Positions 13,673 through 21,424 of a stretch of 64,000 bases of DNA are shown piece by piece. How positions within the stretch are numbered: the stretch's first letter is position 1; each line of letters starts with the position of its first letter. This DNA comes from an uncultured Gemmatimonadales bacterium (lineage in GTDB: Bacteria; Gemmatimonadota; Gemmatimonadetes; Longimicrobiales; Gaopeijiaceae). The position numbers were made by a program, and so were the translations under genes. The stretch covers positions 416,001-480,000 of the forward strand of contig CAWELD010000003.1 of NCBI GenBank assembly GCA_963809895.1, given 5' to 3'. Under the pieces are notes generated by a model. That model did not search any database. It saw only the letters and a program-made list of their open reading frames with translations, and was not told the DNA's origin.

Positions 13673-13726
13673 GCCTTCCACCCGCACCGAGCCACTGATA
13701 CCTTTACAGGCTGACATTCCAGTCCC

Positions 13727-13776
13727 GCTCCGCCCGGCGCTCGGCACCGCAAGCCGACCGCGTTCAGAGGCGGGGC
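13727..13776 (+). promoter_or_regulatory. Candidate bS6:bS18 autoregulatory mRNA leader
   Basis: Outer stem GCTCCGCC (13727-13734)/GGCGGGGC (13769-13776), inner hairpin TCGGC-accgcaa-GCCGA followed by CCG (13758-13760), just upstream of rpsF. Confidence 0.5.
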
Positions 13777-13806
13777 CCGTACACCCCGAACGGACCGAGG
13801 GAAACC

Positions 13807-14427
13807 ATGCGGCTCTACGAGGTCGTCTACATCTTCGACGCGTCCATGGACGAGGACGCCGTCAACGCCAAGCTGGACCGGTATCACGGTCTCATCACCG
13901 AAGCCGGCGGTGAGATCACTGCCGTCGACCACTGGGGCGCCCGCCAGCTTGCCTACCCCATCGGCAAGGCCAAGTCCGGGTACTATGTGGTGGCCCAGTT
14001 CGACGCGCCGGCCGACGCCCTGCCCGAATTCGAGCGCATCGTCAAGCTCGACGACGAGGTGCTGCGCTATCTGGTGGTCCTGAACGAAGGCGAGCCTTCC
14101 AACGGCATGTCCATCATGGCCGAGGCGGCCCCTTCGGCGTCCACGGACGACGACGAGGACGACGAAGAAGAGGACGAGGACGACGACGACAGCCCGCCGG
14201 AGTTCCAGGGCGGCCGCGGCCGACGGCGGCGTCACGAGGGGCCCGCCATCACCCTGCTGAACTACAAGGACGTCTCGACGCTGTCACGCTTCCTGACGGA
14301 GCAGGGAAAGATCCTGCCCAAGCGCACCACCAAGGTGGACGCCCGCTTCCAGAGGCAACTCGGGCGCGCGGTGAAGCGGGCCCGCTACCTGGCCCTGATC
14401 CCGTACATGCGGGACCACGAGGCCTGA
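13807..14427 (+). CDS. rpsF-rpsR: Fused 30S ribosomal proteins bS6-bS18
   Basis: N-terminal MRLYEVVYIF...WGARQLAYPI...GYY...VLRYLVV (S6); C-terminal NYKDVSTLSRFLTEQGKILPKRTT...QRQLGRAVKRARYLALIPY (S18); no stop between them. Confidence 0.93.
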   Translation: MRLYEVVYIFDASMDEDAVNAKLDRYHGLITEAGGEITAVDHWGARQLAYPIGKAKSGYYVVAQFDAPADALPEFERIVKLDDEVLRYLVVLNEGEPSNGMSIMAEAAPSASTDDDEDDEEEDEDDDDSPPEFQGGRGRRRRHEGPAITLLNYKDVSTLSRFLTEQGKILPKRTTKVDARFQRQLGRAVKRARYLALIPYMRDHEA

Positions 14428-14431
14428 TTCG

Positions 14432-15391
14432 GTGCAGGAAGCCAGCCGTCCGGGCGACGAGCCGTTGCCGGAGGGGGATCCCCGGGAGTGGCGCCGTCCT
14501 GCGGCGCTGTTCCTGCTCCTGCTGGCGTTTTCCGCCGTGCGGCCGTCGGTCCTCGTGGGCCTGCCGTTCGCCCTGATGGTCCTGGCCCTGCCGATCCGAC
14601 GTCCCATGGCGTTGCTGCTGGCCGGAGCCATGGTGTTCTTCTCGCTGCTGGGGCCGGAGCGGACGGGCATCTGGTACGCCGAGCGAGGGTGGGCGGTACT
14701 CCTGGGCGGGTGGTTCGCCGCCCTGACCCTGCGCTGGCCCGCCACCCGGTTCCTCACGCGAGCGCTCATGGCGGTGGCCGGTGCGGCCGGCGTGGCGCTG
14801 GCGTTCGGGTTCGCGGCCCCGGGCTCGCTCTCGGTGCTGGACTGGGGGATGGCGGAGCGTCTCCGCGAAGGCGTCACCACGGCCCTGGCCGCCGTTCGCG
14901 TGCTCCAGGGCGGGGCGGAGACACTCTCGCCCGCGCTGGTGACCACGGTCTACCAGGCGGCCGAGACGCAGGCGCACCTGTTCCCGGCGCTGCTGGCGCT
15001 GGGTTCGGTGGCCAGTCTGGGGGTGGCGTGGTGGCTCTACGTGCGGGTGGGTCTGGGCGTGCGCGGCGCGCTCGCTCCGTTGAAGGACTTCCGTTTCAAC
15101 GACCAGCTCGTCTGGTTGTTCATCGCCGGCCTCTTGGTTCTGGTGATCTCGCCGGGCGAGGGATGGATGCGGGCCGGGGCGAACGCGGTCGTCTTCATGG
15201 GCGCCATGTACGCGCTGCGCGGCGCCGCGGTGGTGTTGTTCATCAATGGGGGTATCTCGGTCCTGGGCGTCATCGCCGTCGCCTTGGGCCTGCTGTTCGT
15301 GGCTCCGATCATCCTGGCGGGAGCGCTGGTGATCGGACTGGGTGACACATGGTTGGACCTCCGGGCGAGAGCCGGATCCCGGACGGCGTGA
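14432..15391 (+). CDS. DUF2232 / YybS-family membrane protein
   Basis: Multi-TM; LKDFRFNDQLVWLFI and GLGDTWLDLRAR; usual position between rpsR and rplI. Confidence 0.8.
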   Translation: MQEASRPGDEPLPEGDPREWRRPAALFLLLLAFSAVRPSVLVGLPFALMVLALPIRRPMALLLAGAMVFFSLLGPERTGIWYAERGWAVLLGGWFAALTLRWPATRFLTRALMAVAGAAGVALAFGFAAPGSLSVLDWGMAERLREGVTTALAAVRVLQGGAETLSPALVTTVYQAAETQAHLFPALLALGSVASLGVAWWLYVRVGLGVRGALAPLKDFRFNDQLVWLFIAGLLVLVISPGEGWMRAGANAVVFMGAMYALRGAAVVLFINGGISVLGVIAVALGLLFVAPIILAGALVIGLGDTWLDLRARAGSRTA

Positions 15392-15414: not shown

Positions 15415-15879
15415 ATGAAAGTGATCCTGAAGGAAGACATGCCGAACCTGGGCGAGTCCGGCACCATCGTCGACGTGAAGCCCGGATACGCTCGCAACTA
15501 CCTGCTTCCCCGGGGCTTCGCCTACGAGGCGAGCGAGACGAACCTGCGCCGCATCGAAGAGGAGCGGCAGCGGGCCGAGGAACAGGCGAAGCGCGACTAC
15601 CTGGAGGCCCGGCGGCGCGCGTCCCAGCTCGAGGGCCAGTCGCTGGTCTTCGAGGCGCGGGCCGGTGAAGGCGAAGACGGAAAGCTGTTCGGCTCCGTCA
15701 CCAACGCCGATATCGCCGACCGCCTGAACCGCGACGGAGGGCTCGACTTCGAGTTGGACCGTCGTCTCGTTCAGCTCGAGGAGCCCATCAAGGCGCTGGG
15801 CGCATACGTCGTTCCCATTCGCCTCCACGCCGACGCGGTGGTGGAGGTGGACATTCGAGTGGAGCGCGCCGAAGACTGA
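15415..15879 (+). CDS. rplI: 50S ribosomal protein bL9
   Basis: MKVILKEDMPNLG...VKPGYARNYLLPRG...KLFGSVT...PIKALG; AGGAG RBS. Confidence 0.98.
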   Translation: MKVILKEDMPNLGESGTIVDVKPGYARNYLLPRGFAYEASETNLRRIEEERQRAEEQAKRDYLEARRRASQLEGQSLVFEARAGEGEDGKLFGSVTNADIADRLNRDGGLDFELDRRLVQLEEPIKALGAYVVPIRLHADAVVEVDIRVERAED

Positions 15880-15952: not shown

Positions 15953-16357
15953 ATGGAGTCGATCAGGACCGTGACCCCGGCGGAGCTGCCGGAAGAAGTC
16001 CAGCGGGCAGGAGCGCTCGCCCTGGAGCGAAAGGCGCAGGACGTGTTGGCCCTCGATCTGCGGGGGATCAGCAGCGCCACCGACGTGTTCCTGCTCGCCA
16101 GCGGAACGTCGGACATCCAGGTCCGGGCGGTGGCCGAGCACATCGTCGAGGAATTGAAGAAGGACGGCGTCCGACCCGACCACGTCGAAGGGATGGAGGG
16201 AGGACGTTGGGTCCTCATCGACTACATCGACTTCGTGGTCCACGTCTTCCATCCACAGGCCCGGGGCTTCTACCAGCTCGAGACGCTCTGGGGTGACGCA
16301 CCGCAGGTGGGCTTCGAAGACGAGATGGCCGACTCGGCGGAGAACCCCTCCTCGTGA
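15953..16357 (+). CDS. rsfS: Ribosome silencing factor RsfS (Iojap)
   Basis: KAQDVLALDL...D.FLLASG.S..QVRA...WVLIDYIDFVVHVF...RGFYQLETLWGDAP. Confidence 0.96.
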   Translation: MESIRTVTPAELPEEVQRAGALALERKAQDVLALDLRGISSATDVFLLASGTSDIQVRAVAEHIVEELKKDGVRPDHVEGMEGGRWVLIDYIDFVVHVFHPQARGFYQLETLWGDAPQVGFEDEMADSAENPSS

Positions 16358-16463: not shown

Positions 16464-17909
16464 ATGACTTCCCGTAACGACTGGCAGCCCCTGCGGCTGA
16501 ACGACCCCTACCTTCCGGAGCTGCCCGAGGGCGGGCGCGCCACGGTGGCCGTGGTCGCGTTTCCCAGGGCGCGGGAGTCGGGCTGGTCGGCGCGTGCCAC
16601 CGCGGCCATGGCCCGTGGCTGGTGCCTGTCCGGCCTCCCCACCTACGCCTGCGATCTCGATCTGGAGGAGCCGGCGCTGCACACCGCCTTCGGTGTGGCC
16701 AACGGCGAGGGGATCAGCGACGTGCTCCTGTACGGGGTCTCGGCGAGGCGCGTGGCTCAGCGGGTGGAGGAAGGACTGTTCCTCGCGTCGGCGGGCACCG
16801 TGGCACCGGACCCGGGGGCGGTCAGGGCGAGCCCGCGCTGGGATGCCTTGGTCGACGGCTTCCAGGGCGCCGGGGCGTTGCTCCTCCTCTACGTCGTGGC
16901 GGGGGCGCCCGGCGCCGATGCCGTCCTGGCGCGAGCCGATGGGGTCGTCGCCCTGGCCGGTGCCGACGAGGCCATCGACCTGGGCGAGGCCGAGGAGCGG
17001 CTTCTGGCCGTGCTCGGTCCCGAGGATTCCACCCCGTCACGCGCTTCGCCGGGTGGTGCTCCCGAGCCCGCCGACGAGGAAGAGCCGGAACCGGCCGCCA
17101 GCGCGTCCGCCAGGGCGCCGACGGCCGACTCCTCGGGCCGGGGCTGTGGGCGCCTGGTCCTCATCGGAGTGCTGATCGTGGTGGTGGTCGTGGTGCTGGT
17201 TGCGGCGCTGGGATGGGTGAAGATCCCGGGCCTGAGCCTGCGAGAGGCCGATGCCACCCAGGTGGCGTCGCTCGCGACACCCTCCGCTGGGGTGATGGCG
17301 CTGGAACCGGGACCGGCGGCGACCTCCGCGGGTGTTGTGCCCGCTCCGGAGGAGCTCGAGGTCGGGACGAAGCCCGACGACCTGGCTGCGCAGGAGACCA
17401 CCGCACCCGTCACCGACCCGGTGCAGGCGTGGGCCGTGGCCCTGGAGTCGCTCAGGGCCCTGGATGTGGCGGCGGCGCGTGTCGAGCACCTGCGCTCCAG
17501 GTATCCGGGGACCGCGTTCTGGATCGCGCCGGTGCGCGTGGACGGCGTGCGCTACAACCGAGTGCTGGCCGGGCCGGCCGAGACGCCACAACGGGCCGAT
17601 GCCCTCGGCAAGCGCCTGGCCTCCGAGGCGGCCCGCGGAGGGTACCGCGTCCAGGAAGCGAGGCTCTCGTTCCTGGTGGGAGAGATGGACGGACTGGCCG
17701 CGGCCCGGGAATGGGCCACCTCGCTCGAGGACCTCGGGGTGCCCACGCACGTCCTGCGGGTCGGTCATCCCGACGGCACCACCGCCTTCCGGGTCTACAG
17801 CGGCACCTACGCGTCCGAAGCCGAGGCCGCCACCCTGCGTGAGGTCCTCGAGAGCCAGGGTCTCGGCTCCCTCCGGCTCACCGCACACCGAGGCGTCATT
17901 CCGGAATGA
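16464..17909 (+). CDS. Hypothetical bitopic membrane protein (degenerate MinD/CpsD-like N-terminus, SPOR-like C-terminus)
   Basis: ACDLDLEEPALHTAFGVANGEGISDVL resembles ParA/CpsD segments but has no Walker A; one TM; C-terminal YNRVLAGP and FRVYSGTYASEAEA resemble SPOR repeats; ATGA overlap with smc. Confidence 0.6.
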   Translation: MTSRNDWQPLRLNDPYLPELPEGGRATVAVVAFPRARESGWSARATAAMARGWCLSGLPTYACDLDLEEPALHTAFGVANGEGISDVLLYGVSARRVAQRVEEGLFLASAGTVAPDPGAVRASPRWDALVDGFQGAGALLLLYVVAGAPGADAVLARADGVVALAGADEAIDLGEAEERLLAVLGPEDSTPSRASPGGAPEPADEEEPEPAASASARAPTADSSGRGCGRLVLIGVLIVVVVVVLVAALGWVKIPGLSLREADATQVASLATPSAGVMALEPGPAATSAGVVPAPEELEVGTKPDDLAAQETTAPVTDPVQAWAVALESLRALDVAAARVEHLRSRYPGTAFWIAPVRVDGVRYNRVLAGPAETPQRADALGKRLASEAARGGYRVQEARLSFLVGEMDGLAAAREWATSLEDLGVPTHVLRVGHPDGTTAFRVYSGTYASEAEAATLREVLESQGLGSLRLTAHRGVIPE

Positions 17910-20900
17910 AGCTGCGCTCCCTTCGCGTCCACGGCTTCAAGTCCTTCGCCGACGCCACCGAGGTCCAGTTCCACGACGGGATCACGGCCATCGTGGGCCC
18001 CAACGGCTGCGGCAAATCCAACATCAGCGACGCCATCCGCTGGGTCCTGGGCGAGCAGCGTCCCACGGCCATTCGGGGCGCCAAGATGGAAGAGGCGATC
18101 TTTCAGGGCTCGGTGAACCGGCGGCCGGTGAACCGGGGCTCGGTCACCATGACGGTGACCAATGAAGACGGTGCGCTCCCGGTCCCCTTCGAAGAGGTGG
18201 AGATCGGCCGCATCGTCTACCGTGACGGGGGCAGCGATTACACGCTCAACCGCACCAACGTCCGTCTCAAGGACGTCGTGGACCTGACCCGCGACACGGG
18301 GCTGGGCGCCAACGCCTACAACGTCATCGAGAACCGCATGATCGACGCCATCCTGTCGGATCGGGCGGACGAGCGGCGCGCGCTCTTCGAAGAGGCGGCG
18401 GGCATCGGCAAGTACAAGGACCGGCGCAAGGCGGCCCTCCGCCGTCTGGAGCGTGCGGAGATGGACCTCCAACGGTTGGAGGACGTGATCTCCGAGGTGG
18501 AGACCAAGGTCCGGTCGTTGGCGCGCCAGAAGGGCAAGGCGGAGCGGTATCTGCAGTACCGGGCCCGACGTCTCGACGTCGAGGTCGCGGTGGTGCGGCA
18601 CCAGCTCGACACCCTCACCGGCCGATTGGCCGAGGTGAACCGGCATCTCGCGGGCGACACGGTGGAGGGCGAGGGCAAGGTGGCCGAGGTGCGCGCCGCC
18701 GAGGCCGAGTACGAGTCACTCCGCATCCAGCAGGTGGAGGCCCAGAAGGCCAGGAGCGCCTCGGCGGCGCGCCTCGACGAGATCCGCTCGGAGCTGGTGC
18801 GCTGGGAGCGGGACCTGGCCGTGGCCGACGAACGCGCCACGTACGCCCGTCGGCGCCTGTCCCAGATCGAGGGCGAGCGCTCCGAGGCCCGCTCCCGGGC
18901 GGAGACGGCCGGGGCGGAATCCGAAGAGCTGGCCGAAGATCTCTCGGTGGTGGAGTCCGAGCTCGCCTCGGCCGAGGCCGAGCTGGAGGAACGGCGGTCC
19001 ACCGCGAACGAGGTGCGCGCTCGACTGCAGGAGGCTCGAGAGGCGCTGGAGTCACTGGAGAGCCGCGAACGGGAGATCGCCCGTCGCGGGGCCCAGCTGG
19101 AGGGCGACGCCGAATCGTCCGAGGCCCAGGCGGCCGAGCTGGGGCGCCGTCTCGAACGGCTTGGCCGGGAGTTGGAGGAGGCGGCGGACACGGTCTCGGA
19201 CCTGGAGTCGCAGGGGGATCTCTTCTCTGGCCGACTGGACCTGCTGAAGCGCGAGGTCGACACGGCCAGGGGCGCCGCCCGTGCCGGCGCCGCCGAGGTC
19301 GAGGCGGCCCGGGAGGCGCTGGAAGAGGCGCGCGCCGCAGAGGTGGAGATCTCGGACCGCGCGCAGGCCCTCAGGGCGCGCCGAGCAGCTCTGGAGGCGC
19401 TGGAGCGTGACCGCGAGGGGATGGAGCCCGCCGTGCAAGCGGCGCTGGACGCGGGGATCGAGGGCGTTCACGGCCCGCTGGTGGATTTCGTGCGCGCAGA
19501 CGAGGACGTGGCTCCCGCGGTGGAGGCCTTCCTGGGCCCGCTGGCCCGGGGCCTGGTGGTGGCCGACGATGCGGCCGCGGAGCGCGCCCGCCGGTGGTTC
19601 ACCGAGGACTGGGGGAAGGGCGGGGGACTCGTGTTGCTGCCCCTGGACCGTGCGCCGGGGAGCGGCCCCGCCGGGACCTTGCTCGGCGCGGTGGAGGCCA
19701 CGGGCGAGGGCGCCCCATGGGTGCGGGCGCTCCTGGCCGGCGTGGACCTGGTGGACGAGGACGGCCTCATGGGGGGCAGCGGCGGAGCCCGCGTGACCCG
19801 CAAGGGCGCGACCCGGGAGGCCTCGGGCATCGTCCGCGTGGGCAATCCCACGGGATCGGGGGGGCTCCTGGAGCGGAAAGGTGAGCTGCGCAAGCTGGTG
19901 AAGGACGCCGAGCGCGCCTCCACTGCCGCCGCCGAAGCCCGGGAGGCGAGGGAGGCCGCCAGAGAGACGCTGCGCGCGCGTGAGGAGGCCCTCGAGGTCG
20001 CGCGCCAGGCGGCCCGCGTTGCCGAAGACACGCACCGCCAGGCGGCGGCGGAGGTGGCCGAGGCCGTGGACCGCAAGGACCGGGCGGACCGGCACCGCGA
20101 CGAGCTGGCGCGGCAGGTCGAGGGCACGCGGGCGGCCCGGGCTCGCGCCCAGGAGCGCGCCCGCCAGGCCCGCGAGGATCGCCAGGGCCTCCTGGCCGAG
20201 GAAGAGGGCCTCAGGGACCGGCGCGCCGAGGCGCGCTCGGCGGTGGAGGCGGTGCAGGAAGAGTGGGAGGTCGCCCGCAGCGAGCAGGCGAGCCTGGAGG
20301 TGCAGGCCACCCGTCTCCAGGGCGAGCGGTCCCGTCTGAGCGAGCGGGCCGGGGCGGTGGACCGGGCGCGGGCGTCGGCGCTGGCCCGGACGGAGGCGCT
20401 GGACCGGGAGGAGTCCCAGCTTCGCACCGAGCTCGAGCAGGTCGCCGCGACCCAGCAAGAGGGCGCCGACGCCACCGAGGCCCTCTTCCAGCGGCGCGAG
20501 GAAGCTCAGCAGGAGCTCCGCGCCCGGGACACGGCGTTGAACGAGGTCGGCGAGGCACTGGCCGCCGCCGAACGCAAGGCCCGGCAGGCACGGCAGGCGG
20601 AGCGCGAGGCGACGGACCGACGCCATCGCCTCGAGCTGGAGCGCCAGGAGCTGGAGGGGCGCATCGGGCGCATCCAGGACCGGCTCGAGGGTGAGTGGGG
20701 ACGCCCGCTGGCCGACCTCATGGCCGAGGCGCAGCCGGTGGAGGGCGAGCAGGAGGCGCTCCAGGAGGAGCTCCGCGAGATCGTGGTGGCGCTGGAGCGC
20801 ATCGGTCCCGTGAACATGTTGGCCGTGGAGGAGCATGCCGAAGAGAGCCAGCGGCTGGAGTTCCTCAAGGAGCAGCACGCCGACCTCATCAAGGCCCGCG

Positions 20901-21424
20901 ACGACCTGCGTGCCGCCATCCGCCAGATCAACCAGACCGCCACCGAGCTCTTCTTCGGCACCTTCGAGAAGATCCGAGAGAACTTCAAGACGGTGCACCG
21001 ACGCCTGTTCGAGGGCGGTGAGGCGGACATCTGGCTCGCCGACGAGGAGGATCCCCTGGAATCGCCGGTGGAGATCCACGCCTCGCCCCGGGGCAAGAAG
21101 ACCCAGCGCATCGACCTGCTGTCGGGCGGGGAGCGGGCGCTCACGGCCCTCTCGCTCCTCTTTTCGATCTACCTGGTCAAGCCCAGCCCCTTCTGCGTGC
21201 TGGACGAGGTGGACGCGCCGCTGGACGAGAACAACATCGGCCGCTTCATCCGGCTCCTGCACGACTTCAAGGAGCAGACGCAGTTCGTGGTCATCACCCA
21301 CAACCCGCGCACCATCGAAGCGGCGGACTGGATCTACGGCGTGACCATGGAAGAGCCCGGCGTGAGCACCATCGTGGGCGTGCGCCTGGAAGATGCTCTC
21401 GAACAGGCGCGAGGCGCCGCGTAG
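17906..21424 (+). CDS. smc: Chromosome segregation protein SMC
   Basis: GFKSF...GPNGCGKSNI, coiled coils, hinge, LSGGE, LDEVDAPLD, VITHN. Confidence 0.98.
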   Translation: MKLRSLRVHGFKSFADATEVQFHDGITAIVGPNGCGKSNISDAIRWVLGEQRPTAIRGAKMEEAIFQGSVNRRPVNRGSVTMTVTNEDGALPVPFEEVEIGRIVYRDGGSDYTLNRTNVRLKDVVDLTRDTGLGANAYNVIENRMIDAILSDRADERRALFEEAAGIGKYKDRRKAALRRLERAEMDLQRLEDVISEVETKVRSLARQKGKAERYLQYRARRLDVEVAVVRHQLDTLTGRLAEVNRHLAGDTVEGEGKVAEVRAAEAEYESLRIQQVEAQKARSASAARLDEIRSELVRWERDLAVADERATYARRRLSQIEGERSEARSRAETAGAESEELAEDLSVVESELASAEAELEERRSTANEVRARLQEAREALESLESREREIARRGAQLEGDAESSEAQAAELGRRLERLGRELEEAADTVSDLESQGDLFSGRLDLLKREVDTARGAARAGAAEVEAAREALEEARAAEVEISDRAQALRARRAALEALERDREGMEPAVQAALDAGIEGVHGPLVDFVRADEDVAPAVEAFLGPLARGLVVADDAAAERARRWFTEDWGKGGGLVLLPLDRAPGSGPAGTLLGAVEATGEGAPWVRALLAGVDLVDEDGLMGGSGGARVTRKGATREASGIVRVGNPTGSGGLLERKGELRKLVKDAERASTAAAEAREAREAARETLRAREEALEVARQAARVAEDTHRQAAAEVAEAVDRKDRADRHRDELARQVEGTRAARARAQERARQAREDRQGLLAEEEGLRDRRAEARSAVEAVQEEWEVARSEQASLEVQATRLQGERSRLSERAGAVDRARASALARTEALDREESQLRTELEQVAATQQEGADATEALFQRREEAQQELRARDTALNEVGEALAAAERKARQARQAEREATDRRHRLELERQELEGRIGRIQDRLEGEWGRPLADLMAEAQPVEGEQEALQEELREIVVALERIGPVNMLAVEEHAEESQRLEFLKEQHADLIKARDDLRAAIRQINQTATELFFGTFEKIRENFKTVHRRLFEGGEADIWLADEEDPLESPVEIHASPRGKKTQRIDLLSGGERALTALSLLFSIYLVKPSPFCVLDEVDAPLDENNIGRFIRLLHDFKEQTQFVVITHNPRTIEAADWIYGVTMEEPGVSTIVGVRLEDALEQARGAA

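Follow-up and report, generated by a model that had tools for sequence, protein, structure and literature searches.

In the stretch of DNA analysed here (64,000 nucleotides in all, referred to as the window), the ribosomal proteins bS6 and bS18, which are normally separate chains that pair up in the small subunit, are encoded by one fused rpsF-rpsR gene. The fusion is real and lineage-wide, and in this family it is coupled with the loss of the S18 zinc site and with a new conserved motif. The gene product is probably an uncleaved, single-chain S6:S18 module.

The fused gene and its distribution

The fused gene (13807..14427, + strand, 206 aa), recognised by profile matches and by the architecture of its homologs, is an open frame of 206 codons with zero internal stops. 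Its bS6 domain (aa 1-95; 13807..14091, +) carries the RQLAYP loop (aa 46-51) and R87 of the S6:S18 interface, and is matched by Pfam Ribosomal_S6 (PF01250) over aa 4-91 (E 1.3e-29; 102.7 bits against a cut-off of 27) and by TIGR00166 over aa 1-92 (90.7 bits against a cut-off of 42.9). The bS18 core (aa 148-206; 14248..14427, +) is matched by Pfam Ribosomal_S18 (PF01084) over aa 151-198 (E 1.8e-19; 70 bits against a cut-off of 21) and by TIGR00165 over aa 148-202 (74.5 bits against a cut-off of 38.75); it keeps Y153/K154 and K190/R191/R193, is free of cysteine, and has V177 and F181 at the third and fourth zinc-ligand positions. Between the two domains lie an ancestral S6 C-terminal tail turned linker (14092..14190, +), made up of a PSNGMSIM segment and then a 15-residue Asp/Glu run (aa 114-128; 14146-14190), and a PPEFxG plus Arg-rich motif (aa 129-146; 14191..14244, +), which includes GGRGRRRR at aa 135-142 and replaces the S18 N-terminus and its CxxC. 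The initial annotation had described a 206-aa frame holding S6 and S18 with no stop and no ssb/priB gene between them, and an acidic run followed by GGRGRRRR; both descriptions are borne out, the former by Pfam and TIGRFAM matches over their cut-offs. It had also described a full S18 core, and this core is indeed complete, with the refinement that it has no cysteine, whereas the S18 of most unfused relatives inspected is of the CxxC type.

PF01250 and PF01084 have one match each in this genome (95% complete), both inside the frame 13807-14427, and no second copy of either family was found in the 95%-complete assembly; the cell must therefore obtain both proteins from the fused gene. The canonical heterodimer comes from two separate rpsF and rpsR genes, whereas this genome has the one frame. 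Neither ssb nor priB lies between the S6 and S18 domains at the window locus; two SSB-family matches are located elsewhere in the genome, and so is rpsU. The missing ssb between rpsF and rpsR is the normal state of the phylum and no part of the fusion event. The next gene in the operon encodes a DUF2232 membrane protein (14432..15391, +; PF09991, E 2.1e-07), followed by the operon partner rplI (bL9; 15415..15879, +; PF01281 and PF03948). The DUF2232 gene stands beside the S6/S18 genes in 39 of 49 tree loci, and rplI is present in 44 of the 49. Past the operon are a gene for the RsfS ribosomal silencing factor (15953-16357) and a long, SMC-like ORF, named by look (17906-21424).

S6 and S18 share one open frame in 134 of the 146 family genomes sampled, several of these 134 being single-contig; the number comprises 107 single stop-free matches (two cut short at a contig end) and 27 genomes assigned from inspected loci. 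Among the other 12, three gave no match and one matched only in part (completeness is 60-70% for three of the four and 93% for the other), two are broken by contig ends and one by an N gap, and two (G483 and G501) have a frameshift inside an otherwise fused-type linker, probably an error in both. G458 and G451 are truly split, and the last one, G446, looks foreign. By SecA, G446 is nested among fused genomes, but it has a split rpsF-ssb-rpsR locus on a 4-kb contig (L343, G446:C9), with divergent S6 and S18; its S6 is 33% identical to that of the window's genome, as compared to 37-75% for most C7 proteins. This locus is likely a foreign contig, or else a gene replacement. In another genome (L262, G583), the S18 is unlike that of its family.

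Fusion was seen in each of the 80 loci retained from the genome collection, and the best 120 of 2531 homologs match the whole length of the query at 70-100% identity and carry both Pfam domains. One of these homologs is from Gaopeijia maritima, a cultured marine species (PMC11651109). The natural single chain proposed in the initial annotation, which was to be checked against related genomes, is supported by the 134 fused genomes, and the situation named there as evidence against it, separate genes in all close relatives, is the opposite of the family-wide fusion found.

None of the 87 genomes with an S18 match in two sister families (90 genomes searched) is fused; the open frame is at most 149 aa in 81 of them, and the six longer ones proved to be split on inspection. 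A sample of 401 genomes of the phylum was searched with a second fused protein (E 1e-40); matches came from 66 genomes outside the family and contained one internal stop in 65 of them and none in the remaining one (G357). This search recovered only 22 of 69 family members and thus misses long-linker fusions. The phylum tallies include four genomes flagged as unpublished (G057, G097, G157 and G182), and no single claim rests on these. Compared with other members of its genus, the lone in-frame S6-S18 fusion in family f4 (L363, G357:C149:12500-15800) seems to result from a frameshift in the acidic tail, and is either an error or a young fusion. In 60 of 94 genomes of family f5, a single stop separates rpsF from rpsR, which share a reading frame but are unfused, and the junction is mostly a stop, 3 nt and an ATG (loci inspected, e.g. 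L352-L354, L356-L358, L361). Being in frame is therefore not enough, and family f5 poses the question of what must change before fusion is tolerated. Read-through in this family would give a low level of S6-S18 fusion.

Origin of the fusion, the linker and the zinc ligands

In unfused relatives, the S18 ATG lies mostly -4 to +5 nt from the S6 stop, after an acidic tail. In G458 and G451, the junction reads TAG, 3 nt and ATG, in frame, and S18 is of the CxxC/CxxH type. These two genomes are sister to the fused clade in the SecA tree (28 rows; 100/97), the S6+S18 tree (96/99) and the four-gene locus tree (100/99), and G451 is sister to it in the RpoB tree as well (support 97); a 174-aa piece of RpoB from G458 is nested among the fused genomes (96), contrary to SecA and the locus genes. 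All trees are quick IQ-TREE runs with SH-aLRT support only. With the unfused G458 and G451 as sisters of the fused clade, the most probable history is a single fusion event on the stem of this clade, in which the stop of rpsF was lost. The event would date to the ancestor of most of a single family of Longimicrobiales, the one to which Gaopeijia belongs.

In the ancestor, rpsR would have started no more than a few bases away from the stop codon of rpsF. Once this codon was lost, an existing acidic S6 tail would have been joined to the S18 N-terminus, and on the same branch the S18 zinc ligands would have been lost and the N-terminus remodelled to the PPEFxG and Arg-rich segment, an order of events that we infer. 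The unfused rpsF/rpsR pairs of Gemmatimonadota, the closest being those of G458 and G451, share with the fused gene the adjacency without ssb, the acidic S6 tail, DUF2232 and rplI downstream, and the leader RNA. However, they keep the stop codon, their S18 has its own ATG, and they mostly have the CxxC and CxxH ligands.

The S6 of unfused relatives ends in a PTAPMS-like segment plus an acidic tail, homologous to the linker in the window. As this S6 already has the same acidic tail, the acidic linker, by sequence comparison, is the inherited ancestral tail and not an invention for shielding, so that the case made in the initial annotation for an acidic linker that shields the basic S18 is weaker than proposed. 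The linker varies between 50 and 194 aa, with 40 different lengths among 140 complete, distinct fused genes, and the frame is always kept; its median net charge is about -11 in the fused genes, and its length and composition drift widely. Linkers of 100-194 aa, rich in Ala, Glu and Asp, occur in several genera of the family (L059, L122-L128), and S6 tails of similarly great length are found in unfused f7 genomes (L009-L011). In unfused loci such as L022, L068 and L278-L280, the last acidic S6 codons, GAG GAG, stand (by eye) at the expected position of the rpsR Shine-Dalgarno (SD) sequence, and the acidic S6 tail may double there as the rpsR ribosome-binding site.

A PPEF-like motif is present in 141 of 144 distinct fused genes, and Gly and the Arg run come next. 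In the unfused sister pair G458/G451, the S18 N-terminus begins with M and a proline run (by eye), from which the PP of PPEFxG may descend. A passive linker does not explain the strong conservation of PPEFxG within a stretch that is predicted to be disordered. Possibly, though we hold it to be rather doubtful, the PPEFxG and Arg-rich motif is a new element of the 30S platform, either a maturation site for a ribosomal-polyprotein protease, or a tethered peptide that replaces the zinc knuckle, contacts rRNA near the mRNA exit and co-evolves with the extra hairpin of the leader. If this were true, one chain would act as a ribosomal subunit and as its own translational repressor.

Cysteine is absent from the S18 part of all fused genes (144 of 144), which lack the CxxC plus CxxH of zinc-binding (C+) bS18, and V/F occupy the last two zinc-ligand positions in 133 of 140. 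S18 proteins without zinc ligands are termed cysteine-free (C-) bS18 variants. All zinc ligands are lost in these variants and likewise in the fused S18, but the fused S18 is the sole copy and not a zinc-starvation paralog. As judged by their Cys motifs, S14, L31, L32, L33, L36 and S4 of the window's genome keep their cysteines; with six other zinc-type ribosomal proteins unchanged in this respect, the zinc-site loss is therefore specific to S18, and genome-wide zinc sparing was rejected. The fused family is a case of zinc-site loss limited to one protein.

Cysteine-free S18 is also present unfused in family f4, and zinc loss therefore does not require fusion; the sequences place the two changes together in this family, where they coincide and are not obligately linked. 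The loci concerned (L019, L024, L027, L348, L364 and L366-L369, part of family f4) have an S18 with a KGDP-like N-terminus, and zinc-site loss in this part of f4 is a separate event. Over 401 genomes of the order, a degenerate DNA pattern for the CxxC region performed no better than the same pattern reversed, and was discarded.

The probable single-chain product, alternative readings and a leader-like RNA

In the canonical pair, as described in the available part of PMC4647458, R44, Y48, P49 and R85 of S6 and Y23 and K24 of S18 form the dimer interface, while K60, R61 and R63 of S18 (E. coli numbering) contact RNA. The residues matching those in that text, R46, Y50, P51, R87, Y153, K154, K190, R191 and R193, are invariant or at least 90% conserved among 31 aligned homologs; K190/R191/R193 are invariant in the 31, and KRAR is found in 138 of 140 genes. 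On the same partial source, the canonical bS6:bS18 of E. coli, B. subtilis and T. thermophilus (1G1X) shares with the fused protein both folds, RQLAYP, R87, YK, KRAR and an operon with rplI. However, it is built from two chains, as opposed to one chain with a linker of 50-194 aa.

An AlphaFold2 model from 107 fused sequences reached a pTM of 0.70, with pLDDT values of 84-96 over both cores, above 90 for aa 1-90 and below 50 for aa 97-141, which are predicted to be disordered; a model from 31 close sequences reached a pTM of 0.50, and its S18 part was not resolved. With a quarter of the chain disordered, a pTM of 0.70 suggests that the two domains have a fixed position relative to each other. 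The predicted model has the ferredoxin-like S6 fold and lies 1.0-1.7 A rmsd from most of the top-ranked solved bS6 chains (best TM 0.94 to the target, rmsd 1.0 A). The best 50 fold matches are all S6-sized chains, and no PDB sequence covering both domains was among the best 60 listed in either search. Three fusions of 155-158 aa (P0184, P0201 and P0236) are near-seamless, with 6-14 residues between their domain matches, a spacing which suggests that the two ends would lie close in the dimer. The main idea of the initial annotation, a natural single-chain S6:S18, is in keeping with the family-wide conservation, the intact interface and RNA-binding residues and the two-domain model.

Most likely, translation would start from 13807 only. 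Within the product, the S6 and S18 parts would pair with each other as a heterodimer, the acidic loop being disordered, and the fused chain would bind the 16S central domain as usual; assembly of the 30S platform on 16S rRNA with S15 is suggested by its sole-copy status and by residue conservation. We infer dimer-like folding and autoregulation, with no cleavage of the chain.

Several other readings bear on this conclusion, beginning with the frame itself. Collapse of the GAC/GAG/GAA run during assembly, joining two genes, had been raised as a caveat in the initial annotation. The run is of low complexity and draws unrelated contigs, the lone fusion of G357 resembles a frameshift in such a tail, so that artefacts of this kind may exist, and no single assembled contig from the sequencing runs spans the whole gene. 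However, a collapse is hardly conceivable, and the caveat is refuted, because it cannot yield the same junction in 134 genomes, let alone with linker sequences that differ and in a cultured species as well. The check by reads proposed for 14100-14230 was made with contigs: one from an RNA run agrees fully with the window over 14123-14245, without gaps, and 14090-14719 is covered by overlapping DNA contigs, again without gaps. Contig depth over the acidic run consists mostly of unrelated low-complexity contigs, and the RNA-run contigs do not show transcription. It is also very unlikely that a free S18 arises by internal initiation, at 14107, 14116 or another start, with the long frame only partly used. 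Two in-frame ATGs do exist, at 14107 (M101) and 14116 (M104), and in 32 of 144 fused genes an ATG, GTG or TTG with an SD-like word lies between the S6 domain and the PPEF motif. However, only 46 of 144 genes have an ATG at the M101 position (others often have Gln, Ala, His, Leu or Asp there); before the PPEF motif, 77 of 144 have no ATG and 32 have none of ATG, GTG and TTG, and over the whole linker the corresponding numbers are 39 and 17 of 140. M101 corresponds to a Met within the S6 tail of unfused kin, an SD-like word is present before 13807 (as ahead of the S6 start in 138 of 144 fused genes) and absent before 14107 and 14116, and S6 would still be without its own stop. The two ATGs, suspected in the initial annotation to be S18 starts, belong to the S6 tail and are not conserved, and an internal S18 start was rejected.

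Other readings accept the long frame and differ on the fate or purpose of its product. The chain could be a polyprotein that is recognised at PPEFxG and cleaved within the linker, releasing ordinary S6 and S18 at a fixed 1:1 ratio; ubiquitin-ribosomal protein precursors and the Prp cleavage of bL27 are precedents. A short conserved motif with an aromatic residue at the border of the disordered acidic loop and the S18 N-terminus would suit this reading, as would the tolerance of linkers up to 194 aa. We consider it unlikely, though, since the Prp cysteine protease (PF04327) was found in 0 of 5 genomes searched (the control was positive in 3 of 14), fusions of other lineages are without the motif and some almost without a linker, and the PP may simply come from the proline run of the unfused sister pair. 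Alternatively, the linker and motif might have gained a function, either as a loop on the mature 30S platform that modulates initiation near the mRNA exit and the anti-SD, or as a chaperone of the basic S18. The acidic charge of the linker and the fixation of the motif across the family speak for this, as does the finding that in Bacteroidetes the S6 C-terminal extension and S18 touch the 16S 3' end (PMC7797042, in its available part). It seems quite unlikely nonetheless, as the acidic tail is older than the fusion, the linker drifts as described above, and the canonical anti-SD, bS21 and SD-like words in the genome (155 of 513 first ATGs against 665 of 7946 internal ATGs in the window's genome) give no sign of anti-SD sequestration. 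Bacteroidetes-like sequestration was accordingly set aside. A link with RimK loss is not supported, as a RimK-family gene occurs in four of five genomes, both fused and unfused.

The uncleaved single chain, which we prefer to these alternatives, would also take part in regulation. Just upstream of the gene, an rpsF-leader-like mRNA structure (13723..13802, +) was identified by a three-helix pattern and pair counts. On the same strand, stem 1 pairs 13723-13726 with 13799-13802, its 3' strand overlapping the Shine-Dalgarno-like GAGGGA; stem 2 pairs 13727-13732 with 13771-13776; an extra hairpin of 4 bp (13777-13780 with 13790-13793) completes a three-way junction; and an unpaired CC(G) lies at 13795-13797 beside the SD stem. 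The pattern was found in 136 of 143 fused loci versus 1 of 429 shuffles. In 39 pattern-selected leaders, 96.8% of cells are paired with 12 two-sided changes, and 0 of 500 shuffles were as high. The two-sided changes concern stem 2; stem 1 hardly varies, nor does the extra hairpin, so that covariation says little about the latter. The folding energy of the window's leader alone is no better than that of shuffles (z -0.25), and Rfam gave no relevant match to it up to E 5. Unfused kin have a two-stem form (by eye), while G458 and G451 already have the extra hairpin plus a bulge, and the hairpin is therefore older than the fusion. A TG-n-TAnnnT word, like an extended -10, lies just upstream of the leader (13696-13704), and similar AT-rich words occur in relatives (by eye).

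According to the available part of PMC4647458, the rpsF leader has a helix H1 holding the SD, a helix H2 and a conserved cytosine pair, and its repression requires the S6:S18 complex, neither protein being sufficient by itself. The upstream structure fits this leader, and binding of S6:S18 to it would follow by analogy. Compared with the motif as given in that part of the paper, it shares the SD-pairing stem, the second stem and the unpaired CC next to the SD stem; the family adds the 4-bp hairpin in the 3' strand of the loop, as does the unfused pair. The fused chain would itself be the S6:S18 complex that represses the leader: in excess, it would bind leader RNA via the KRAR residues of S18, thereby hiding the ribosome-binding site.

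Fusions in other bacteria and implications

Both domains are found in 48 of the best 150 representatives at 50% identity; seven of these belong to the type seen in this family, and about six seem to result from gene calls that are broken or overlap. In the tree, 35 fusions are scattered among and outside the unfused Gemmatimonadota rows, none joining this family's clade, and three of the 35 group with other Gemmatimonadota. The cysteine-free S6-S18 fusions that group with other Gemmatimonadota (P0132, P0138 and P0142) come from one contig each, and a metagenome scan for the genomic context of P0132 found nothing. As 22 of the 29 fusion clusters looked up are single-member clusters, many other-lineage fusions remain unconfirmed. 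"Candidatus Hydrogenosomobacter endosymbioticus" (PMC8852324) has an S6-S18 fusion (BDB96116.1) on an 827-kb record. Such fusions in other bacteria have the same domain order in one chain, but they fall outside this family's clade, are without the PPEFxG motif and have linkers that are mostly shorter and less acidic. S6-S18 fusions thus recur in other bacterial lineages, and the one in this family is a variant and not a new kind of thing.

The automatic UniRef label for such proteins is "Multifunctional fusion protein". A published description of an S6-S18 fusion was not found among titles and abstract beginnings, most subscription journals being outside the coverage, and the main text of the Gaopeijia paper (PMC11651109), in its available part, has no "ribosomal protein", "fusion" or "rpsF". 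Databases name the fused genes of this family S6 only, so that rpsR can look missing from these genomes, which should serve as a warning in annotation.

Core ribosomal proteins are usually taken as fixed units, and this family indicates that S6 and S18, an obligate pair, can become permanently joined in a single chain. The fusion has been kept across some 80 genera, unfused sister genomes preserve the likely pre-fusion junction, and a cultured species makes the system testable. The fusion offers a clade marker and a natural single-chain reagent for studies of 30S platform assembly and of the S6:S18 leader switch.
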